A DNA stretch of 64,000 nucleotides from a virus. This document shows, one piece after another, positions 21,423 through 30,975 of the stretch (position 1 is its first letter; every line of letters starts with the position of its first letter). Below the pieces are notes generated by a model. The model ran no database searches, had not been told where the DNA came from, and saw only the letters and a program-made list of their open reading frames with translations. The stretch lies in UHGV virus genome UHGV-0371537; one strand, written 5' to 3'. Made by a program: the position numbers and the translations under genes.

Positions 21423-23441
21423 ATGTCAGAATTTAAGCCCTTCGCAGTAGCTGTTAACAACAACGTGCTGGCCATGTCAGCAACTGGTCTGTTCATGACC
21501 AACATCGATAAAGATGCTCTGTGGGATCTGTATCTGTCTTCTTTCCCTGCTGGCACCAACCCGCTCTACCGTGAGCGTACCGAGCACGACTGCACCTGCT
21601 GCAAACAATTCATCCGTAATATCGGTGGTGTGGTTACCATCGACACTGACCTGAACGTGATCTCTATCTGGGATAACATTCAGCTGGGCAACGAATACGA
21701 CGTTGTCGCTGCGGCGCTGTCTGCGTATGTCAAGCAACACGCAATCGTCGACGTGTACTTCAACGATACCAAGAAAGTCGGTGTTGAGTCGAATCACGAA
21801 ATGAAAGACGGTAATGTCCGCACCTACAACCACTTCCACACCGACCTGCTGCCCAGCTATGTTCTGCGGGCTGATGCCATCGCTTCTAAGAAGGGTGAAA
21901 TCCGTCAGGCGATTGAAGTGTTTGAGCGCGGCCTGCGTGAACTGTCTCTGGAATCGGCTGAAATCGTTCTGGAATTGATCGACCAGAATTCTCTGTATCG
22001 CGGTGAAGAGCACAAGGCGGCAGTGCAGGCGTTCGTGGTGAACAAGACCCTGTACGAACAGACTGCAGAAGAGAAACGCGCTCTGTGGGCTTGGCGCACT
22101 GGCTATCATGCGAACGGTCATACCCCTCACGGCATTCGTAATACCGTGATTGGCTCTCTGTTGGTAGACCTCAACGAAGGCCGCGACCTGGAAACCGCCG
22201 TCAAGTCTTTCGAAGCCAAAGTAGCTCCGACGAACTACAAGCGCCCAACCGCGCTGGTAACTAAGTCGATGATCGAAAATGCGCAGAAAGAAGTTGAAGC
22301 GCTGGGTCTGACCGATTCACTGGGTCGCCGTTATGCCGTGTATGACGATCTGACCATCAACAACGTTCTGTTTGCCGACCTGGCAGCACAGAAGAAGATG
22401 GACCCGTTTGCTCAGCTGGCGTCTGAAGTGAAGACTCCGACCAAGTCCCTGGACAAGGTTGAAGAGATCACCATCGACGACTTCCTGGCGAACGTGCTGC
22501 CGAAAGCGCACTCAATGGAAGTGCTGGTTGAGAACTCTCACACTGGCAACCTGATGTCCCTGATCGCTCCGGCTACGGCAGGTGCTCCTAACCTGTTCAA
22601 GTGGAACAACGGCTTCAGCTGGTCATACAACGGTGAAGTGGCCGACTCCATCAAAGAGCGCGTGAAGACAGCAGGTGGCAACGTTGACGGTTTCCTCCGT
22701 GTGTCGCTGGCGTGGCATAACAACGACGACCTGGATCTGAGCCTGAACGATCCTTTACACAATCATGTGTATTACCACAACCGTCGCTCAGCAACTGGCG
22801 CAACCCTGGATATCGACATGAACGGTATGGACGGCATTGACCCGAATCGCCGCCCGGTGGAGAACATCTTCTTCAGCGATGAGCGCAAGCTGCGTAATGG
22901 TCTGTACGAGTTCTATGTCACTAACTTCAGCCAGCGTGAAACCTGTGATATGGGCTTCGAAATCGAAGTCGAATACAAAGGCCAGACCAAGCGTTTTTCG
23001 CATCCTGGCCTGAAGCACAAAGATCGCACTCTGGCTGTTGTGATTGATGTCCGCGCCGGACAGGTGGTAGACATCCGCTCTACTCTGAAAGACGATGCTC
23101 GTTCTCAGGAAATCTGGGGCATCAAGACCTCGGTCTTCCAGAAGGTACAGCTGGTTCTGAACTCACCAAACCATTGGGACGGCGAGCAGACGGGCAACAA
23201 GCACGTGTTCTTCATCCTGGAAGGTTGTGCTAACCCTGTCGGCACTCGTGGCTTCTATAACGAATATCTGAAGCCGGAACTGGATAAACACCGTAAGGTT
23301 TTTGAAATGTTAGGTAGTAAGATGAAAGTACAGCCAAGCACTGAGCAGCTGTCCGGTCTGGGCTTCTCTACCACCCAACGCAACCACGTGTTCGTGAAGG
23401 TGAGCGGCTCGTTCAACCGCACTGTAAAAGTTGTGTTCTAA
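21423..23441 (+). CDS. large hypothetical protein (672 aa), unassigned
   Basis: AGGA RBS; no Walker, vWA or nucleotidyltransferase motif seen; first gene of a + strand block running to the NAD cassette. Confidence 0.6.
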   Translation: MSEFKPFAVAVNNNVLAMSATGLFMTNIDKDALWDLYLSSFPAGTNPLYRERTEHDCTCCKQFIRNIGGVVTIDTDLNVISIWDNIQLGNEYDVVAAALSAYVKQHAIVDVYFNDTKKVGVESNHEMKDGNVRTYNHFHTDLLPSYVLRADAIASKKGEIRQAIEVFERGLRELSLESAEIVLELIDQNSLYRGEEHKAAVQAFVVNKTLYEQTAEEKRALWAWRTGYHANGHTPHGIRNTVIGSLLVDLNEGRDLETAVKSFEAKVAPTNYKRPTALVTKSMIENAQKEVEALGLTDSLGRRYAVYDDLTINNVLFADLAAQKKMDPFAQLASEVKTPTKSLDKVEEITIDDFLANVLPKAHSMEVLVENSHTGNLMSLIAPATAGAPNLFKWNNGFSWSYNGEVADSIKERVKTAGGNVDGFLRVSLAWHNNDDLDLSLNDPLHNHVYYHNRRSATGATLDIDMNGMDGIDPNRRPVENIFFSDERKLRNGLYEFYVTNFSQRETCDMGFEIEVEYKGQTKRFSHPGLKHKDRTLAVVIDVRAGQVVDIRSTLKDDARSQEIWGIKTSVFQKVQLVLNSPNHWDGEQTGNKHVFFILEGCANPVGTRGFYNEYLKPELDKHRKVFEMLGSKMKVQPSTEQLSGLGFSTTQRNHVFVKVSGSFNRTVKVVF

Positions 23442-23484
23442 ACCCTTTTGAAACTGTAACCCATTTATCATTGAGGAAAGTAAA

Positions 23485-23856
23485 ATGTTCGATAAAGCAA
23501 CCCGTCTGAAACTGCGCTTCGAGTCCAACAAAGGTCTGCTGTCTGTTGAGCAGGTTTGGGACCTGAGCCTGACCGCCCTGAACGAAATGGCCAAAGGTCT
23601 GAGCCGTCAGGTGAAGGCAGCGGAAACCGATGAAGAAGATTTCATCGGCACCAAAAGCGCCGTTGACTCCGAACTGCAGCTGCGCTTCGACGTTGTCAAG
23701 CACATTATCGGCGTTAAGCTGAAAGAGCGTGACGACAGCAAAGACGCGGCACAGCGTAAGGCGGACAACCAGGTTATTATGGAGCTGATCCAGCGTAAGA
23801 AACAGCAGGAGCTGGAAGGCAAATCTGTTGAAGAACTGGAAGCGCTGCTGAAATAA
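23485..23856 (+). CDS. hypothetical protein, charged/helical
   Basis: 123 aa, GAGGAAAG RBS, followed by a strong rho-independent terminator. Confidence 0.5.
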   Translation: MFDKATRLKLRFESNKGLLSVEQVWDLSLTALNEMAKGLSRQVKAAETDEEDFIGTKSAVDSELQLRFDVVKHIIGVKLKERDDSKDAAQRKADNQVIMELIQRKKQQELEGKSVEELEALLK

Positions 23857-23878
23857 CCCTGTTGGCTCCGGCCTGAGC

Positions 23879-23907
23879 AACCCCGCCTTGTGCGGGGTTT
23901 CTTTTAT
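23879..23907 (+). terminator. rho-independent terminator after gene 23485
   Basis: AACCCCGC-CTTGT-GCGGGGTT then TCTTTTAT. Confidence 0.7.
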
Positions 23908-23921
23908 CTGAGGAAACCGTT

Positions 23922-24716
23922 ATGACAACCATCAATCGTAATGAACCCAAAGGTGTTGAGCTGAAGGGTAAATCTGTTCGCGAAGGTCTGAAGCTGTCTC
24001 CAGACCTCCTGAAGTCCCACATTGCTGAAGTCATCTATGAAGACCGTGAAGTCGGCGGTCATCGTGTCATCACCTGCCACTTCAAGATGGATAATGGATT
24101 TATCGTCTGGGGCAAGAATAGCTCTACTTCCATCGACCCTGCCAACTTTGATGAAGAGTTGGGTAAGAAGCTGGCCTATGACAAGACCTTCTCTCAGTTG
24201 TGGGAACTGGAAGCCTACCGCGCCGTTGTGGAGAAGCAGATGTTGGAGGTGGCTACCGCCGATGCGAAGATAGACATCTTCCAGTACATCTCCGAAAGGG
24301 GGAAGATAAATCAGATGGCTGGTATGGAATTCTTGCAAGGCCACGGTCAGTCTTTCGTGTTCCGACATCCACGAGACCCAAGCCGGGGTTTCTGTGCTGA
24401 ATTTATTCAGACTGACAACGAACGCCACAACGAACAATTCAATGGTAAATCCCGAGAGAAGGTTGAAACCTATCTGCGTTCGTTCATGCACCCGGATGAA
24501 TTGTATTCTGAACTCGTTGTCCGTCTGGCAAAGACATGCATGGCGGCTTACAAGGGTGGGATCTACTTCAATGCCACCACTTGGGATAAGATGAGCGCCG
24601 AAGAACAGAAAGACTGCTGTGAAGGCATCAGGCGGCTCTTGCTGGCTCCGGCGGATTATATCCCAACTGATCAGAAGGACGCGCTGTTCAAGGCCATCGT
24701 CGATTCCTACAAATAA
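23922..24716 (+). CDS. hypothetical protein
   Basis: 264 aa, GAGGAAA RBS; antisense 274-aa ORF rejected; no motif assigned. Confidence 0.55.
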   Translation: MTTINRNEPKGVELKGKSVREGLKLSPDLLKSHIAEVIYEDREVGGHRVITCHFKMDNGFIVWGKNSSTSIDPANFDEELGKKLAYDKTFSQLWELEAYRAVVEKQMLEVATADAKIDIFQYISERGKINQMAGMEFLQGHGQSFVFRHPRDPSRGFCAEFIQTDNERHNEQFNGKSREKVETYLRSFMHPDELYSELVVRLAKTCMAAYKGGIYFNATTWDKMSAEEQKDCCEGIRRLLLAPADYIPTDQKDALFKAIVDSYK

Positions 24717-24746
24717 CTGAATCAGCAAACTCCTTCAATAACAATG

Positions 24747-24778
24747 ACGCCCAGTATATTTGCTGGGCGTTTCAATTT
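24747..24778 (+). terminator. terminator-like hairpin after gene 23922
   Basis: ACGCCCAG-TATATTTG-CTGGGCGT then TTCAATTTG. Confidence 0.5.
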
Positions 24779-24789
24779 GTGCATCACAG

Positions 24790-24795
24790 TATAAT
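24790..24795 (+). promoter_or_regulatory. -10-like TATAAT box ahead of the Prs-like/NAMPT-like gene pair
   Basis: TATAAT at 24790-24795 after hairpin 24747-24770; no convincing -35. Confidence 0.3.
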
Positions 24796-24826
24796 ACGAC
24801 TGTACAATACACCATGAGGCTACATT

Positions 24827-25681
24827 ATGTTTCGTTTGAAATTGAACGACCAAGATGTGTTCTATAAGCACTTCACCTTCCCAGGTGGTGAGGAACATAT
24901 CAAGATCCAAAAGGCTGGAATCCCTATCGGCCACGTCCAGAACGTGGTGATTGATGCTCACATCAAATCCTCTGCTGACTTCGTTGAGCTGGCACTGCTG
25001 GTTAACGCTGTTCGTGGCCTGGGTAACGTGGACCGTCTGACGGCATTCCATGCATATATCCCGTACTTCCCATATGCGCGTCAGGATCGTCATTGTGACT
25101 TTGGTGAGCCTCTGTCCGTGAAGTGGGCGGCTGAGTTCATCAACAGCATGAACTTTGACCGCGTGGCGATCAAAGACCCTCATAGCCATGTCGTGTCTTC
25201 TCTGATCAACAACGTCCATGTGGTCCCGCAAGATTACATCGTGCGTCAATATCTGGGCTGGTTCATTCGCGGCAACAATGCTGTGCTGGTAGCCCCTGAC
25301 GGCGGCGCGGCGAAGAAGACCGAAGCCCTCAGCCTGTCATTGGACGGCGTTCCTGTTGTCTACGGACACAAGAACCGTGACACCAAGACTGGTGAGATCA
25401 TTGGGGTGAGTATTACAAACCCTGAACTGATCAAAGACCGCTATCTGGTTGTGGTTGATGATATCTGCGACGGTGGGCGCACGTTTGTTGAGCTGGGCAA
25501 AGAGCTTCAGAAGCACGAGCCTAAGCACATGACGCTCTTCGTCACCCATGGCATCTTCAGCAAAGGTCTCTCTGTTTTCGACGGGATCTATGATGCTGTG
25601 TATGCCGACACTGTCTGGTGGGAGAACATCACCGCCGACGGTCTTCCTTTCAAAACTGAAAATACAGGACGTGTAAAATGA
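24827..25681 (+). CDS. ribose-phosphate pyrophosphokinase (Prs) homolog; candidate ADP-ribose pyrophosphate synthetase (Adps) of an NAD+ reconstitution pathway
   Basis: IPYFPYARQDR and VVVDDICDGGRTF match Prs motifs (E. coli IPYFGYARQDRR, VLVDDMIDTGGTL); 4-nt overlap with downstream NAMPT-like gene. Confidence 0.8.
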   Translation: MFRLKLNDQDVFYKHFTFPGGEEHIKIQKAGIPIGHVQNVVIDAHIKSSADFVELALLVNAVRGLGNVDRLTAFHAYIPYFPYARQDRHCDFGEPLSVKWAAEFINSMNFDRVAIKDPHSHVVSSLINNVHVVPQDYIVRQYLGWFIRGNNAVLVAPDGGAAKKTEALSLSLDGVPVVYGHKNRDTKTGEIIGVSITNPELIKDRYLVVVDDICDGGRTFVELGKELQKHEPKHMTLFVTHGIFSKGLSVFDGIYDAVYADTVWWENITADGLPFKTENTGRVK

Positions 25682-27342
25682 GCATGCGCCACTTAGATCC
25701 GATCCATGCAATCGACTTCTACAAATCAGGGCACATCTATCAGTTCCCTGAAGGCAGCGAGCTGGTGTTCTCCAACGGAACTCCGCGCTCCAACAAACTG
25801 TTCAACTCTCACCTGCCGAAGAACGGCGTGGTGGTCTGGGGCATCCAGGGCTTCATGACTTGGTTCCATGAACTGTTTGACGAAGCATTCTTCCAGCGCC
25901 CGAAGGCCAAGGTGTTGAAGAAGTATGCCCGTCGCATGAACAAAGTCCTGGGTCCAGGTCGTGTTGGTACAGAGCATATTGAAGCCCTGCATGACCTCGG
26001 CTACCTGCCTATCGAAGTCCGTGCGCTGCCCGAAGGCACCATGTGTCCGTATGGCGTTCCGGTGTATGTGATGTTCAACACCTTGCCGGAGTTCTACTGG
26101 CTGACCAACTATCTGGAGACTGTGTTCAGCTCTGAGATCTGGAAGCCGATGACGAACGCCACCATCGCCCTGCATTACAAGGCACTGATGGTGAAAGCCG
26201 CTATCGCTACAGGTGTGTCGCCGGACCATTGGTTCATCGACTACCAAGGCCACGACTTCTCCTTCCGTGGCATGAGCGGGTGGCATGACGCGGCGTCTTC
26301 CGGTTCCGGCCATTTGGTATTCTTCAAAGGCACCGATACCAACCCTGCCCTGGACTTCGTAGAAGAGTATTATGGCGCAGACATCGACGAAGACTATGTC
26401 GTTGCTGGTTCTGTTGCGGCTACCGAACACGCCGTGATGTGTATGGGCACGAAGGATGGTGAATTCGAAACCTTCCGCCGCCTGGTGCAGGACGTGTATC
26501 CTGATGGCATCGTCAGTATCGTATCTGATGCATGGGATTACTGGCAGGTCATCGACGACTATCTCCCTCGCCTGAAAGACATTATCATGGCGCGTAACGG
26601 TAAAGTCGTGATCCGCCCCGACTCGGGCGACCCAGTACACATCGTTGGCGGCTACCGCATCGAGGGGTTCAAAGACCGCGCCACGCTGAACATCAGCGGC
26701 GTGTCTAGCAGCACCGAAGTCATTCACATCGAAGAGACGAACACCTATCACCTGATCACAGGCGAAGGCACGATCAATTCTCTGATGGCAGACGACCGTA
26801 ATATCATCAGCCGTTCTGAAGCAGTCGGCTCTATCCAGCGCCTGTGGGAGATCTTTGGCGGTACTCAAACTGAGACTGGTCACTTCCTTTTGGATGATCA
26901 CATCGGTCTGATCTACGGCGACTCCATCACCCTGGCACGTGAAGACCAGATCTTTAGCCGTCTGGCTGGCCGGAACTTCGCTTCCATCAACGTGGTGTTC
27001 GGTATCGGTTCCTACACCTACCAGATGAACACCCGTGACAGTACTGGCACGGCAGTGAAAGCCACGGCTGGTAAAGTGAACGGCGAATTCCGTGAGATCT
27101 TCAAAGAGCCGAAGACCGACAAAGGCGGGACTAAAAAGTCTGCACGTGGTTTCCTTAAAGTCATTAAAGACTCTCAGGGTAAACTAGTGTTGGTTGACGG
27201 TATCACCTTTGATCAGGTACAAGACGCCGACAACCAGCACCAACTGGTGTATCGTGATGGTAAGTTCTTCAACACTCAGACTCTGGAAGATGCGCGTGTT
27301 CGTGCTGCTCCTCTGGTGGCGGAACTGGCCTCACAAATCTGA
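25678..27342 (+). CDS. nicotinamide phosphoribosyltransferase (NAMPT) homolog; candidate nicotinamide ADP-ribose transferase (Namat)
   Basis: 554 aa; N-terminal AIDFYKSGHIYQF resembles the NAMPT DSYK region; family call from memory; no NMNAT (HxGH) gene seen nearby. Confidence 0.75.
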   Translation: MSMRHLDPIHAIDFYKSGHIYQFPEGSELVFSNGTPRSNKLFNSHLPKNGVVVWGIQGFMTWFHELFDEAFFQRPKAKVLKKYARRMNKVLGPGRVGTEHIEALHDLGYLPIEVRALPEGTMCPYGVPVYVMFNTLPEFYWLTNYLETVFSSEIWKPMTNATIALHYKALMVKAAIATGVSPDHWFIDYQGHDFSFRGMSGWHDAASSGSGHLVFFKGTDTNPALDFVEEYYGADIDEDYVVAGSVAATEHAVMCMGTKDGEFETFRRLVQDVYPDGIVSIVSDAWDYWQVIDDYLPRLKDIIMARNGKVVIRPDSGDPVHIVGGYRIEGFKDRATLNISGVSSSTEVIHIEETNTYHLITGEGTINSLMADDRNIISRSEAVGSIQRLWEIFGGTQTETGHFLLDDHIGLIYGDSITLAREDQIFSRLAGRNFASINVVFGIGSYTYQMNTRDSTGTAVKATAGKVNGEFREIFKEPKTDKGGTKKSARGFLKVIKDSQGKLVLVDGITFDQVQDADNQHQLVYRDGKFFNTQTLEDARVRAAPLVAELASQI

Positions 27343-27350
27343 TAACCGAA

Positions 27351-27373
27351 GGGGAGGCAACTCCCCTGTTTCG
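27351..27373 (+). terminator. hairpin after NAMPT-like gene (weak T-run)
   Basis: GGGGAG-GCAA-CTCCCC then TGTTTCG. Confidence 0.4.
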
Positions 27374-27383
27374 AGGTCGAGGA

Positions 27384-27554
27384 ATGTCCAAACCATTCAA
27401 AAATGCGGGTGTCGACAACCTCGACCGCCGCTTTAGCCCATCGGAAACGCTGATGAGTCAGATTGAACTCAATCGCGATTTCCTGGAACATATGCTGGTC
27501 AAGCCGGAAGGTGAGGCCGAAGACAACCCTGAAGAAGGCAATAACGATGATTGA
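27384..27554 (+). CDS. small acidic protein overlapping the vWA gene start
   Basis: 56-aa ORF MSKPFKNAGV...EEGNNDD; GAGG RBS; stop overlaps vWA start (ATGATTGA); not in ORF track. Confidence 0.35.
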   Translation: MSKPFKNAGVDNLDRRFSPSETLMSQIELNRDFLEHMLVKPEGEAEDNPEEGNNDD

Positions 27555-29808
27555 ATCCCTGGAGTTTAAGAATGCGGTTTCGACTGTTGCTCCGTCCAAC
27601 CATGTAATCGTTGTGGACATCTCTTATTCGATGTACCGTGCGCTCCCTGAAGTCCGTAAGCACCTGAAGGAGAACCTGCCTTCCCTGGTGAAACCGGAAG
27701 ACACTGTGAGCCTCCTATACTTCTCATCCCGTGGCGACTTTGGTACTGTGTTCTCTGGTCGCCAGATCAGTGTTGCGTCTGATCTGAGCGAGCTGAACAA
27801 ACTGATTGATCGCTTCCTGCAACCATCCGGCTGTACTGGTTTTGTTGAACCTCTGGGTCTGGCGGTAGATACTGCGCGCAGTCTGAAGAAACCCGGCTAT
27901 GTCAACAACCTGGCATTCATGACCGATGGTTATGACAACTGCTGGCGCTCCAATGAGATCCTGGCCGTTGCCGAAACCTTGCCATTCGTCTTTGATAACA
28001 TCACTTTCATCGAATACGGCTGGTACTGTAACCGCGAACTGCTGGCTCAGATGTCTGAGCGTTCCGGCGCGACTCACGTGTTCGCCGAAGGCCAGACTGA
28101 ATATCAGACTGAGCTGGAAAACGTGTTGAAGTCCTCGGTGCCGAAGGTTCGTGTTGACGTTCCTCTGGTGTACACTCACGCCATTTATGTCGAAAACGGC
28201 GTAGCAACCGTGCTGGCGGTGCAAGCCGAAGCAAGAATGGATTTCCAGATTGGCGATGAGTCCGTAAAACGGAAAGTGATTGAAGTAGGCCACGTGAGCA
28301 TCCCTGAGAGCGTCACGAAGCTGTGGGTTGTCAATCCTAACATGATCGACCAGCTTGATGCGCTGGCGGACATCCAGGCGGCATACGTGCTGGCGTTCTA
28401 CGGCGTACACATCATGGACGCAGACCTGGTGTGGGCTGCACTGAAGAAAACGGGCGACGTTCGCTTCATCAAACAGTACAGCAACTGCTTCACCAAGCAG
28501 GACTACTCCAACATCAAAGTTGATCTGACCCAGGCCATCGTTGATGACCAGCTGCGCGGCGTTGATGGTATCGATTACAATATGGTCCCGGCTGAAGATG
28601 CCACGACCGTGGTTGATGTGCTGACGTACCTGGCCGAAGCTGGCGTGTCTGTTGCCACCAAGCACCCGATGTTCTCCTACAAGAGTATCGGTCGCGGTAC
28701 TGTACAGAAAGCCGACGACACCGAAGACAAACTGGCCGAAGAAATCGCGAACGCCCAGTCCAAAGAAGAGCGCAAAGCCCTGGCTCTCAAGCTGGCCGAG
28801 CACGAAGAGTGGACGCCGTCGTTTGAACCTGCCAATGATCTGGGTGTGGTTCCAATCAGCGACCTGGTCTATAACTCCGAGCGCCCGAACATCAGTGTGC
28901 GGACAGTGCAGCATGGTACTGTTGCAGTTCCTGAGTTCGCGCAGAAGAAGTACGGCCTGCCTGAAGAACTTGACACCTTCCAGTGGCGCAATTACACCAT
29001 CGTCAAAGATGGTATCATCAACGTGAAGACTCTACCGTTTAGACATACCGAATCACCAGTCCGGGGTGCTGAGGTTGTGCAAAAGCTGATCGAGATGGGC
29101 GTTCACGTGTTTGGTGGTCCAGAAGTGTTCATCTTGAACCTGGAAAGCGTACCGCTGGTCAACCGTGCGATGGTCAAGAACATCAGTGCTGCTCAGTTCT
29201 TTGCGGACAATGTCCGCCTGGAAGCCCTGAAAGGCAAGCAGAAGGTGCTGAAGTTCTATCGCGACGCTCTGGTTGGTAAAGGCAATGCCAAAGGTCTGGC
29301 TATTCAGTACGGCGCTGAGGCCGCAGAATACCTGTCTGGTGTTGGCATTCGCGATTACGGCTTCTCGCCGAAGACTGAGACCAAGGAGTCTACCGACTTC
29401 TACATGAGCCGTGAGCTGAACGTTAAGATCGCTGGCGCTTCTTCCCTGCCGAGCATCGCAGCGGTACAGAAGAAGATTGCCGACAAAAAGACTCTCAATG
29501 CGGGTGATATGTTCATCGCCAATGCCCTGAAAGAGTACGATGCATTCGTGAAGTCCCCGGCGATCACTGCCGTGCCTGAAGCCGTACAGAAACAGCTGAT
29601 CGAAAACTGGATCGACGCTGCTGCCAAGGCGGCCATCACTGAAGTCCGCGCTCTGAACAAGACGCTGTCTAAAGTGGTTTATGGTATCGTTGCTGGCCAC
29701 GGCTGGTTCACCGACCTCGACCTGGAAGAGTCCACCATGGAAGTTGAAGTGGATGGCGTGAAGTACAAGGTCACTGCCGAACTGGCAGAGAAAGAGATCA
29801 AAATCTAA
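27547..29808 (+). CDS. von Willebrand factor A (vWA) domain protein, 753 aa
   Basis: MIDAS-like HVIVVDISYSMY (DxSxS) with downstream T and MTDGYDN; start moved to ATG 27547 (GAAGAAGG RBS); rest unassigned. Confidence 0.65.
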   Translation: MIESLEFKNAVSTVAPSNHVIVVDISYSMYRALPEVRKHLKENLPSLVKPEDTVSLLYFSSRGDFGTVFSGRQISVASDLSELNKLIDRFLQPSGCTGFVEPLGLAVDTARSLKKPGYVNNLAFMTDGYDNCWRSNEILAVAETLPFVFDNITFIEYGWYCNRELLAQMSERSGATHVFAEGQTEYQTELENVLKSSVPKVRVDVPLVYTHAIYVENGVATVLAVQAEARMDFQIGDESVKRKVIEVGHVSIPESVTKLWVVNPNMIDQLDALADIQAAYVLAFYGVHIMDADLVWAALKKTGDVRFIKQYSNCFTKQDYSNIKVDLTQAIVDDQLRGVDGIDYNMVPAEDATTVVDVLTYLAEAGVSVATKHPMFSYKSIGRGTVQKADDTEDKLAEEIANAQSKEERKALALKLAEHEEWTPSFEPANDLGVVPISDLVYNSERPNISVRTVQHGTVAVPEFAQKKYGLPEELDTFQWRNYTIVKDGIINVKTLPFRHTESPVRGAEVVQKLIEMGVHVFGGPEVFILNLESVPLVNRAMVKNISAAQFFADNVRLEALKGKQKVLKFYRDALVGKGNAKGLAIQYGAEAAEYLSGVGIRDYGFSPKTETKESTDFYMSRELNVKIAGASSLPSIAAVQKKIADKKTLNAGDMFIANALKEYDAFVKSPAITAVPEAVQKQLIENWIDAAAKAAITEVRALNKTLSKVVYGIVAGHGWFTDLDLEESTMEVEVDGVKYKVTAELAEKEIKI

Positions 29809-29851: not shown

Positions 29852-30175
29852 ATGAGCGGTAAACCAACATATGTTGAGGTAATGCGCCACCTGGCCCGGT
29901 ACGCCACCGATAATCTGAATATGGATCTGTGGCGTGACGATGACAAGCGCAAACTGCTGGATGATGTGGCGGCTCAAAACGAGGATGCCCTGGACAAGCT
30001 GGCTGGCCTCCGCACCAAGAAAGACCTCGGCGGCGACGAACTCGATGCCATAGAAATCGTAATGGATCTCGAAGAAGAGTTTCAGGTCGAAATCGACGAC
30101 GGTTGGCTGGGTAGTAAAGGCGATGACCCGACCATGGGTGAACTCGCTGAACTCGTGGTCGCCCTGCGCAAATAA
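29852..30175 (+). CDS. acyl carrier protein-like protein with acceptor Ser replaced by Glu
   Basis: DLGGDELDAIEIVMDLEEEFQVEI vs E. coli AcpP [24 protein letters not shown]; the phosphopantetheine-accepting S of DSL is E here. Confidence 0.7.
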   Translation: MSGKPTYVEVMRHLARYATDNLNMDLWRDDDKRKLLDDVAAQNEDALDKLAGLRTKKDLGGDELDAIEIVMDLEEEFQVEIDDGWLGSKGDDPTMGELAELVVALRK

Positions 30176-30537: not shown

Positions 30538-30597
30538 TTCTATAAACCCACGGCGGGGTATGTTTACTCCGCCTATTTGACATCAAGAGACTATATC

Positions 30598-30975
30598 ATG
30601 AAAAAGTTAATCCTCGCTGTTGCTATGCTGGGCGCTTCCTTTGCTGCTGTTTCCGCTCCTACTGTCATCACCGGAGTGTCTACCAACGGCGTTTATGCTT
30701 TCAAGGCGTATGGACAAGACCTCGTCCTGTATAAGAACGGGAAGATGATTGAGCGCTGTGTAGCGGACGGTGTAAACCGTGGGATCGACAATCAGGGCAG
30801 TCCGTTCATTCTGGACTTCTATGCCTGCTCCAACGGGACGAAGACCTTTGGTGTCAAGACCTTCGGCAACGTCGCCGACGGCGGTTGGGGGTTTATGGTT
30901 GAAACCCGCAATCGCCGCCCGGTCACGACTATTGAAGAAGAGTTCTTGATCTCTGTCGGGGGTGGTTCGTTATGA
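30598..30975 (+). CDS. secreted (periplasmic) protein with Sec signal peptide
   Basis: MKKLILAVAMLGASFAAVSA signal peptide; GAGACTATATC-ATG initiation context. Confidence 0.55.
   Translation: MKKLILAVAMLGASFAAVSAPTVITGVSTNGVYAFKAYGQDLVLYKNGKMIERCVADGVNRGIDNQGSPFILDFYACSNGTKTFGVKTFGNVADGGWGFMVETRNRRPVTTIEEEFLISVGGGSL

Follow-up and report, generated by a model that had tools for sequence, protein, structure and literature searches.

Does a Prs-like gene that overlaps a Nampt-like gene in the virus genome UHGV-0371537 serve conventional NAD+ salvage by way of NMN, or does the pair rebuild NAD+ directly from ADP-ribose? The window, by which we mean the whole 64,000-nucleotide stretch analyzed here, belongs to an Agtrevirus-like member of the Ackermannviridae. 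The initial annotation had proposed NAD+ reconstitution pathway 1 (NARP1) for this cassette, and the proposal is borne out in that profiles, a tree, residues, and context agree and sister-phage orthologues are present in the published NARP1 census. As read from its sequence, the cassette is very probably a two-gene NARP1 operon. We infer its substrates, products, and anti-defense phenotype by analogy, the assignment of function being based on homology at 33 to 46% identity to tested enzymes.

Layout of the locus

The Prs-like and Nampt-like open reading frames (ORFs) lie exactly where they had been described, both on the plus strand with a 4-nt overlap, and the two motifs quoted for the former (IPYFPYARQDR and VVVDDICDGGRTF) are both within its 284-aa product. 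The locus contains the following genes and DNA elements.

23922..24716, plus strand: gene for a gp49_66-domain protein of 264 aa (Pfam PF13876 only), directly 5′ of adps
24747..24770, no strand assigned: hairpin ACGCCCAG-N8-CTGGGCGT in the gap between the upstream gene and adps; conserved, a backbone element
24791..24796, plus strand: exact TATAAT, 31 nt 5′ of the adps ATG; conserved in relatives
24816-24819, plus strand: GAGG Shine-Dalgarno sequence ahead of adps, read from the sequence
24827..25681, plus strand: adps, ORF of 284 aa, Prs-like, an ADP-ribose pyrophosphate synthetase by homology
25678..25681, plus strand: ATGA start/stop overlap of adps and namat, read from the sequence
25678..27342, plus strand: namat, ORF of 554 aa, Nampt-like, a nicotinamide ADP-ribose transferase by homology
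27351..27366, plus strand: GC-rich hairpin GGGGAG-GCAA-CTCCCC, directly 3′ of the namat stop codon

The junction reads gtaaaATGAgc, with the ATG of namat beginning at 25678 and the TGA of adps ending at 25681, and adps and namat are translationally coupled via this ATGA. Because the two genes overlap, there is no gene between them. The cassette had also been credited with a TATAAT-like box of its own. The box itself is real, exact, and conserved, but it does not belong to the cassette, because the same hairpin and TATAAT element is also found at the NARP1-free "empty" sites of sister phages (L099 and L100) and is thus part of the backbone. A consensus scan of positions 23300-27800 returned no complete sigma-70 promoter (0 sites versus 3.2 expected by chance) and no −35 element matching the TATAAT.

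Relationship to characterized Adps and Namat proteins

NARP1 has been characterized in Escherichia phage Bas63 (JohannRWettstein), where it comprises genes 79-80, and in the Bacillus phages SPbetaL1 and FADO (bioRxiv 10.1101/2024.02.11.579819). These systems have the same adps-namat gene order as the window and no NMN adenylyltransferase (NMNAT), and the Adps catalytic Lys, the Namat core, and a Namat-type selectivity-clamp helix motif (SCH) are common to all; Bas63 further shares an identical DDICDGGRTF motif, the length of the selectivity-clamp loop (SCL), and a Namat insertion at the same site. Identity to the window proteins is only 33 to 37% for Adps and 43 to 46% for Namat, however, and the 4-nt overlap of adps and namat is replaced in Bas63 by a 45-nt gap. 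The clamp differs as well, with Met instead of Tyr at SCH position 7 and Leu instead of Trp at the SCL residue following Lys.

The 284-aa protein matches Pfam Pribosyltran and Pribosyltran_N, NCBIfam TIGR01251 (3e-30), and phrog_619 (2e-90), and its best PDB match is the Prs of M. smegmatis (5mp7; E = 5e-18). Pairwise BLASTP was discarded as a means of telling Adps from Prs, being ambiguous (E. coli Prs outscores the FADO Adps in alignments to the window protein), and reciprocal profiles and a tree were therefore used. With a profile of 77 Namat-linked Prs-like ORFs, from which Ackermannviridae were left out, the window protein scores 275 bits, the characterized Adps proteins 218 to 245 bits, and E. 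coli Prs 144 bits; with TIGR01251, the model of cellular Prs, the corresponding scores are 105.1, 96 to 138, and 423 bits. The window protein misses the NCBIfam Prs cut-offs, that of TIGR01251 (cut-off, 113) and, by far, that of every Prs equivalog model (e.g., 93 versus 296), while the E. coli Prs control clears them at 423 to 532 bits. A bootstrapped neighbor-joining tree (188 columns) that included three cellular Prs separated these from all Namat-linked proteins with a bootstrap of 100/100. The window Adps falls within the clade descending from the most recent common ancestor of the Bas63 and SPbetaL1 proteins, a bracket that is a point estimate only, because the internal branches are weakly resolved.

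Individual residues point the same way, and the two sites of note in Adps are as follows.

25370..25372, plus strand: Lys182 in the GHKNRD loop, equivalent to catalytic K162 of SPbetaL1 Adps by pairwise residue mapping
25457..25486, plus strand: motif DDICDGGRTF, aa 211-220, the same as in Bas63 Adps by alignment; DDMIDTGGTL in cellular Prs

The K162A variant of SPbetaL1 Adps is inactive (Osterman et al. 2024, bioRxiv 10.1101/2024.02.11.579819). Like other Adps proteins, that of the window is without the N-terminal helix and the C-terminal tail of Prs, and a Namat homologue adjoins its gene on the same strand, which places it within the 10 genes used as a criterion by Osterman et al. On sequence grounds, the Prs-like protein is assigned to the phage Adps clade, apart from cellular Prs.

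The 554-aa protein matches Pfam NAPRTase (7e-32), NCBIfam NF006629 (3e-141), and phrog_448 (2e-193), as well as the crystal structure of SPbetaL1 Namat (9W5X/9W5W [PMC12774641]) at an E value of 2.5e-135, with human Nampt at about 1e-49. It scores 701 bits with a Namat profile, versus 292 bits for KVP40 NadV, to which it is 29% identical. In the comparison with characterized Adps and Namat versus Prs and NadV that had been suggested at the outset, both window proteins thus side with Adps and Namat by family profile. All of the Namat core is conserved (D13, Y15, F194, R197, D220, H251, R313, D315, and G414/D415, which in SPbetaL1 numbering are D13, Y15, F189, R192, D215, the catalytic His, R306, D308, and G360/D361). 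Among 21 mapped SPbetaL1 positions, comprising the NAD+-contacting residues and Tyr394, 17 are identical, and the remaining four differ as R40K, A362S, F392Y, and Y396M (SPbetaL1 to window). Three further segments of the protein are of note.

25780..25827, plus strand: SCL, TPRSNKLFNSHLPKNG, by alignment; same length as the Bas63 SCL
26653..26826, plus strand: lineage-variable insertion, aa 326-383, after RPDSGDP, by alignment; length varies among many Namats
27007..27039, plus strand: SCH, GSYTYQMNTRD, aa 444-454, by alignment and residue mapping

The SCH consensus of Namats is GS-X-phi-X-phi-X-phi-TRD, in which X is most often aromatic (PMC12774641). The window motif fits this framework with Tyr at positions 3 and 5, whereas KVP40 Nampt has GGGLLQQLDRD at the site. 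Position 7 is Met450 in the window and the adenine-stacking Tyr396 in SPbetaL1. Since this position is Y in 64, F in 7, M in 4, H in 3, and L in 2 of 80 Namats (79 of them Adps linked), an aromatic residue is not universal there. Nor is Met unique to the lineage, as was considered, for it is present in the unrelated L029 and L074, with His or Leu elsewhere. In the SCL, stacking is provided either by an Arg at position 3 or by the residue that follows Lys/Tyr (PMC12774641). The window reads S-N-K-L-F (Lys40, Leu41, and Phe42) against S-D-K-W-F in Bas63, so that Leu41 replaces the stacking Trp and two adenine-stacking clamp positions, Leu41 and Met450, are aliphatic. The 47-residue insertion (aa 326-383) was rejected as a special feature: that of Bas63 is larger and at the same site, and the motif-to-motif spacing across the site, 94 residues in the window, ranges from 47 to 125 over the 80 Namats.

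NMN adenylyltransferase search and alternative explanations

The earlier statement that no NMNAT is encoded near the cassette holds for the entire 64-kb window and for the full genome of Shigella phage MK-13, a close relative that shares 97.9% identity with the window in Adps and 99.6% in Namat. When every six-frame ORF of the window and of the complete MK-13 genome was searched by phmmer, using NadD and NadR of E. coli as queries, no match was better than an E value of 0.5; the GxFxPxHxGH motif is in no real gene of either, and no NMNAT is annotated in the complete MK-13 genome. Among 80 IMG/VR loci with related Namats, a same-strand Adps is found within 4 kb in 79 and an NMNAT in none.

In conventional salvage, the Prs-like protein would make PRPP and the Nampt-like protein NMN, and a phage NMNAT would be dispensable because host NadR or NadD/PncC converts NMN to NAD+. 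Enterobacterial hosts encode both NadR and NadD, and Namats still make NMN from PRPP in vitro (bioRxiv 10.1101/2024.02.11.579819; PMC12774641). The clamp of the window Namat, aliphatic at its two stacking positions, also speaks for this explanation, in that double clamp mutants of SPbetaL1 Namat lose most of the ADPR-pyrophosphate-dependent activity and keep NMN synthesis (PMC12774641). Against it, other Adps-linked Namats repeatedly carry Met, Leu, or His at position 7 of the SCH, and the Prs-like protein is in the Namat-linked Adps clade, below all cellular Prs equivalog cut-offs. Moreover, SPbetaL1 Adps yielded no product in the ribose-5-phosphate/PRPP synthetase reaction, and Bas63 NARP1 remains functional in a host from which pncC and nadR are absent (bioRxiv 10.1101/2024.02.11.579819). 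We consider conventional salvage quite unlikely.

A pathway of the NARP2 type, as in Vibrio phage KVP40 (NadV Nampt plus NatV Nmnat), would resemble the window cassette in its Nampt fold, its use of nicotinamide, and, by analogy, its role against NAD+ depletion. It requires an NMNAT, and none was found in the window or in MK-13. The gene might lie elsewhere, as the window covers 64 kb of a genome of about 158 kb and, in KVP40 and other NARP2 phages, the two genes are not neighbors. For MK-13, whose proteins are 98 to 99.6% identical to those in the window, the complete genome nevertheless has neither a NadD/NadR-like ORF nor an annotated NMNAT. KVP40 NadV prefers PRPP and is without the aromatic SCH motif, and at 29% identity its GGGLLQQLDRD is missing from the window Namat. 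Osterman et al. call the orthologues "Adps-associated" and not Nmnat-associated (bioRxiv 10.1101/2024.02.11.579819), and a NARP2-type pathway appears extremely improbable. It is hardly more probable that the cassette is a decaying or nonfunctional accessory element heading for loss. Sister genomes do show deletions, which have produced an Adps::Namat fusion in Ag3 (phrog_12872) and have left a mere remnant of the cassette in L096, and many Ackermannviridae are without it (including genomes in PMC10791037). In the window, however, neither frame is interrupted, no catalytic residue is missing, and dN/dS is 0.03 to 0.04 for adps and 0.009 for namat, at dS values of 0.17 to 0.8, which shows purifying selection on both genes.

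Occurrence in Ackermannviridae and predicted role

The initial annotation had placed the cassette in an accessory block, and indeed it is present or absent at one site that is fixed among Ackermannviridae, where NARP1 is a presence/absence polymorphism. The window DNA is 95.7% identical to that of P46FS4. Orthologues from SKML-39, P46FS4, allotria, Ag3, and 0507-KN2-1 are included in Tables S1 and S2 of Osterman et al., where the Adps proteins are labeled "Namat within 10 genes: Yes" and the Namats "Adps-associated" (bioRxiv 10.1101/2024.02.11.579819). These Ackermannviridae entries correspond to the window genes and occupy the same locus; they share 93 to 99.6% amino acid identity with the window and show no substantive difference, and the window represents a further isolate of the group. 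Of 14 Agtrevirus genomes, 8 have been recorded as carrying NAMPT/RPPK genes (PMC10791037), and a review of the Ackermannviridae already ties them to NAD+ reconstitution (PMC11721090). The reading as a NARP1 cassette is therefore supported but not new, having already been catalogued for this phage group.

The part as yet undescribed is the locus around the cassette, a NARP1 hot spot directly 3′ of a gp49_66-RyR (RyDEP-family) gene in Ackermannviridae. Extended NARP1 operons, with which the window has the adps and namat core in common, are NARP1-AP, which adds a Macro-domain ADPR-1″-phosphatase, Adpp (bioRxiv 10.64898/2026.01.28.702374), and the operon of mycobacteriophage DyoEdafos, in which NARP1 is combined with the RyR-domain glycosidase RyDEP (bioRxiv 10.64898/2026.05.28.727677). 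Pfam searches and inspection of flanking products found no Macro domain in or beside the window operon. A RyDEP-family gene is present, as in DyoEdafos, but its product is a homologue that has lost the ligand-binding core of the RyR domain. With no Macro-domain gene and the RyR core lost in the neighbor, the window has a minimal two-gene NARP1.

The loss is apparent from homologues of about 290 aa, which match PF02026 (RyR) at 41 to 43 bits, whereas the 264-aa protein has no match to it even at an E value of ≤10. A 40-aa gap takes out the equivalents of RyDEP H75, W78, and H100 and leaves that of D117 (KDALF); all four are kept in the full-length homologue P0028 (PF02026, 41 bits). An AlphaFold2 model of the 264-aa protein (pLDDT, 84) retrieved nothing from the PDB with Foldseek at an E value of ≤0.001, and no RyR match, a result that is consistent with a lost RyR core and otherwise uninformative. 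The gene has a dN/dS of 0.1 to 0.24. Two alleles are found in Ackermannviridae, one with an intact RyR domain and a widespread, core-deleted one under purifying selection, which is that carried by the window. Mutual exclusion of intact RyR and NARP1 was considered and dropped, as all four combinations occur (Fisher p = 0.067, with phylogenetically non-independent loci). It is conceivable, though rather unlikely, that the core-deleted protein has acquired a new NARP1-linked or anti-defense role other than cADPR binding or cleavage, or that the aliphatic clamp alters the donor specificity of Namat. The "RNA polymerase ADP-ribosylase" gp146 of MK-13 was discounted as a cassette-linked consumer of NAD+, its gene being absent from the window.

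For NARP1, the preferred reading, the mechanism would follow that of the characterized Bas63 and SPbetaL1 systems. A host defense such as type I Thoeris, DSR1/2, SIR2-HerA, SEFIR, Kongming, or a similar system would split NAD+ into ADP-ribose and nicotinamide. Using ATP, Adps would then add pyrophosphate to the free ribose moiety of ADP-ribose, producing ADPR-pyrophosphate, from which nicotinamide would displace pyrophosphate in the reaction of Namat, regenerating NAD+ directly. NMN adenylyltransferase would be unnecessary for this pathway, and none is encoded.

Because both the pathway and its occurrence in this phage group have been published, the window adds nothing conceptually new. The phage is predicted to resist NAD+ depletion of the SIR2, TIR, and SEFIR types and, because it has no Adpp, to remain sensitive to aRES, which produces ADPR-1″-phosphate. 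Degradation or sequestration of cADPR by the known RyDEP mechanism is not expected, because the RyR core of the neighboring protein is deleted. NARP1 reverses the NAD+ depletion caused by many unrelated defense systems, and its presence therefore predicts host range on strains with Thoeris, DSR, SIR2-HerA, SEFIR, or Kongming, which helps in the choice of therapeutic Ackermannviridae phages.

Family assignment of the adps-namat gene pair

The overlapping Prs-like and NAMPT-like genes reported in the initial annotation were recovered as two plus-strand ORFs at exactly the positions given there, with the quoted motifs found in the 284-aa product and with an ATGA common to the adps stop codon and the namat start codon.

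24827..25681, + strand: adps ORF, 284 aa
25678..27342, + strand: namat ORF, 554 aa
26653..26826, + strand: 47-residue insertion in Namat (aa 326-383), after RPDSGDP, where Namats as a whole vary in length

The 284-aa product matches Pfam Pribosyltran and Pribosyltran_N, NCBIfam TIGR01251 (3e-30), and phrog_619, "ribose-phosphate pyrophosphokinase" (2e-90). The 554-aa product matches Pfam NAPRTase, NCBIfam NF006629 (3e-141, exceeding the model cutoff), and phrog_448, "nicotinamide phosphoribosyl transferase" (2e-193). Purifying selection is strong on both genes, with dN/dS values of 0.029 to 0.043 for adps and 0.009 for namat (dS, 0.17 to 0.8 over both genes).

By BLAST, the window Adps shares 36.8% amino acid identity (2e-40) with the Adps of Escherichia phage Bas63, 32.5% and 29.5% (9e-15) with those of the Bacillus phages SPbetaL1 and FADO, respectively, and 27.4% (5e-18) with Escherichia coli Prs. 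Because the E values for FADO Adps and E. coli Prs left pairwise BLAST unsettled as a discriminator of Adps from Prs, reciprocal profiles were used. Scores against the cellular Prs model TIGR01251 were 105 bits for the window protein, 138 for Bas63, 106 for SPbetaL1, 96 for FADO, and 423 for E. coli Prs, and the window Adps stayed below every Prs equivalog cutoff among the NCBIfam models. Against a profile of 77 Namat-linked Prs-like ORFs from IMG/VR (Ackermannviridae excluded), the scores were 275 (window), 245 (Bas63), 222 (FADO), 218 (SPbetaL1), and 144 (E. coli Prs). A neighbor-joining tree of 188 core columns split the three cellular Prs proteins (E. coli, M. smegmatis, and human PRPS2) from all Namat-linked proteins with 100/100 bootstrap support and placed the window Adps within the clade spanned by Bas63 and SPbetaL1, the two Adps lineages with biochemical evidence (bioRxiv 10.1101/2024.02.11.579819). 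Residue mapping identified K182 as the equivalent of the catalytic lysine K162 of SPbetaL1. The window Adps carries DDICDGGRTF, exactly the Bas63 motif, where Prs has DDMIDTGGTL, and DPHS where Prs has DLHA; like other Adps proteins, it lacks two features of Prs, the N-terminal helix and the C-terminal tail.

The best solved structure for the window Namat is SPbetaL1 Namat (9W5X/9W5W; E = 2.5e-135), with human Nampt at ~1e-49. The protein is 43 to 46% identical to the SPbetaL1, FADO, and Bas63 Namats, in contrast to 29% for NadV of Vibrio phage KVP40, a PRPP-preferring Nampt of the NARP2 pathway. Among 2047 phage records, matches below 60% identity ran from ~35 to 47% in Adps-type phages down to ~25 to 29% in KVP40- and T4-like phages. 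A profile of 78 Namats from IMG/VR loci, 77 of them Adps linked, gave 701 bits for the window protein, 781 for SPbetaL1, 780 for FADO, 608 for Bas63, and 292 for KVP40 NadV.

We mapped 21 positions of SPbetaL1 Namat, namely, Tyr394 and the residues that PMC12774641 lists as contacting NAD+, and found 17 unchanged; the remaining four are R40K, A362S, F392Y, and Y396M, the first two of which are shared with Bas63. The Namat-specific helix motif, GS-X-phi-X-phi-X-phi-TRD (PMC12774641), reads GSYTYQMNTRD in the window, compared with GSYTYQYMTRD in Bas63, GSFTYQYNTRD in SPbetaL1 and FADO, and GGGLLQQLDRD in KVP40. Two adenine-stacking positions depart from the pattern: Met450 replaces Tyr, and Leu41 stands where Bas63 has the post-Lys stacking Trp. 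Since position 7 of the motif is Y in 64, F in 7, M in 4, H in 3, and L in 2 of 80 Namats (79 Adps linked), Met there appears to be a minor recurrent variant and no disqualifier, although it may alter selectivity for ADPR-PP. The post-RPDSGDP site is an insertion hot spot across phages, with a flanking-motif spacing of 47 to 125 residues (124 in Bas63).

Linkage, NMNAT search, and published record

The claim that no NMNAT accompanies the pair holds. When E. coli NadD and NadR were compared by phmmer with all six-frame ORFs from the window and from the complete genome of the Shigella phage MK-13, no homologue emerged (best E = 0.5), the canonical nucleotidyltransferase motif is absent from the real genes of both, and MK-13 has no NMNAT annotation. 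Among 80 IMG/VR loci that encode the closest Namat relatives, a same-strand Adps homologue lies within 4 kb in 79 and an NMNAT in none; this census reproduces the published Adps-Namat linkage on an independent data set.

These sequence comparisons support the NARP1 reading proposed in the initial annotation, which appears to be right but had been published earlier for the same phage group. NARP1 was described by Osterman et al., who reported that it overcomes Thoeris I, DSR1/2, SIR2-HerA, and SEFIR; their Table S1 records "Namat within 10 genes: Yes" for the Prs/Adps homologues of SKML-39, P46FS4, allotria, Ag3, and Klebsiella phage 0507-KN2-1, and Table S2 tags the partner proteins "Adps-associated" (bioRxiv 10.1101/2024.02.11.579819). 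NAMPT and RPPK were found in 8 of 14 Agtrevirus genomes (Sorensen et al., PMC10791037), and a 2024 Ackermannviridae review connects these genes to the Osterman mechanism (PMC11721090).

Distribution, decay, and insertion site of the cassette

The 2.5-kb cassette segment is 95.7% identical in DNA to Salmonella phages P46FS4 and SW16-7 and 94 to 95% identical to MK-13, SKML-39, and E. coli phage AV101. MK-13 (Ackermannviridae, Aglimvirinae, Agtrevirus) is collinear with the entire window over 91.8 to 155.7 kb, with protein identities of 97.9% for Adps and 99.6% for Namat (DNA, 93 to 96%).

Among Ackermannviridae loci sharing the flanking 672-aa and vWA-like genes, NARP1 occurs in the window, in MK-13 and allotria, and in five IMG/VR loci (L097, L098, L103, L104, and L109) and is missing from twelve, comprising ten IMG/VR and two SeF6a-type loci (L093 and L094). 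This bears out the placement in an accessory block: the gp49_66 gene on one side and the 56-aa and vWA-like genes on the other bound a fixed site (24717..27383; L093 to L111) that is polymorphic for the presence of NARP1. Locus L096 (6897-7400) retains a remnant in which Adps codon ~55 is fused to the Namat C terminus, and in Shigella phage Ag3, Adps(1-222) is fused in frame to Namat(226-554), the arrangement that phrog_12872 represents (Osterman Table S1); both are decay products of the cassette, and the Ag3-type fusion explains why both window proteins match this single phrog. In L013 and L104, the gp49-like gene lies 3' of namat rather than 5' of adps.

The 110-nt spacer 5' of adps contains a GAGG Shine-Dalgarno sequence and two further elements, read from the sequence.

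24747-24770: hairpin
24791-24796: exact TATAAT

This block is nearly invariant among NARP1-positive relatives. The TATAAT-like box previously credited to the cassette therefore exists but is not its own: an identical hairpin and TATAAT precede the next backbone gene in NARP1-free sister phages (L099 and L100), so that the pair is a backbone element with the cassette behind it, and a consensus scan of the cassette region found no full sigma-70 promoter.

Neighboring genes and the minimal form of the operon

23922..24716, + strand: gp49_66-domain gene directly 5' of adps, 264 aa; PF13876 is the sole Pfam match

Homologues of ~290 aa, 39 to 60% identical over >90% of the length, have an added C-terminal RyR domain (PF02026; 41 to 43 bits, cutoff 27.4), the family of RyDEP, which mycobacteriophage DyoEdafos encodes within its NARP1 operon (bioRxiv 10.64898/2026.05.28.727677). 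RyDEP matches SeF6a_040 of Salmonella phage SeF6a (E = 4e-14), in which H75, W78, H100, and D117 are kept. In the 264-aa protein, the flanks are kept around a clean 40-residue deletion, through which the counterparts of H75, W78, and H100 (RyDEP numbering) and of the GWxYG turn are lost and, with them, the ligand-binding and catalytic RyR core. The deleted allele is widespread and constrained (dN/dS, 0.1 to 0.24); its AlphaFold2 model (pLDDT, 84) has no significant PDB match. A clean trade-off between RyR allele and NARP1 is not supported, as all four combinations occur (Fisher P = 0.067, with nonindependent loci). In L109, an intact RyR gene is followed by NARP1. The unrelated phage contig L020 (5789-6823) has, directly 3' of adps and namat, a gene with a strong RyR match, whose 344-aa product combines N-terminal CxFxTG-type tandem repeats with a C-terminal RyR domain bearing all RyDEP key residues; it is another independent NARP1-RyR pairing.

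Compared with MK-13, the window is without gp151 (119 aa), sited directly 3' of namat (27376/27384 junction), and gp146, annotated "RNA polymerase ADP-ribosylase" (about 30540-30601); both differences are indels of the accessory region that surrounds NARP1. The 781-aa ORF 27463..29808 was called from a TTG start; its true start is probably ATG 27544 (27544..29808, MIESLEF..., as annotated in MK-13 and allotria), which overlaps the stop of the 56-aa gene 27384..27554. The vWA-like product begins with a DxSxS motif (VVVDISYSM), with weak Pfam VWA matches (E about 0.02); a gene for an acyl carrier protein (29852..30175) comes after it. Upstream, the 672-aa protein (21423..23441, +) belongs to phrog_1735, and its SeF6a orthologue is labeled DUF8224 in precomputed Pfam matches. 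In an unrelated viral contig of 60 kb, a homologue (E = 4e-32; L060:1048-2622) adjoins a NARP1 operon, which hints at a recurring association.

NARP1-AP adds to NARP1 the Macro-domain phosphatase Adpp and copes with aRES, the maker of ADPR-1''-phosphate (bioRxiv 10.64898/2026.01.28.702374). In contrast, Pfam found no Macro-domain gene within or beside the window operon, which thus appears to be the minimal two-gene form. Both the pathway and its occurrence in this phage group have been published, and the cassette is an ordinary example of it; the cassette would not be expected to rescue the phage from aRES, nor from cADPR signaling by the known RyDEP route.
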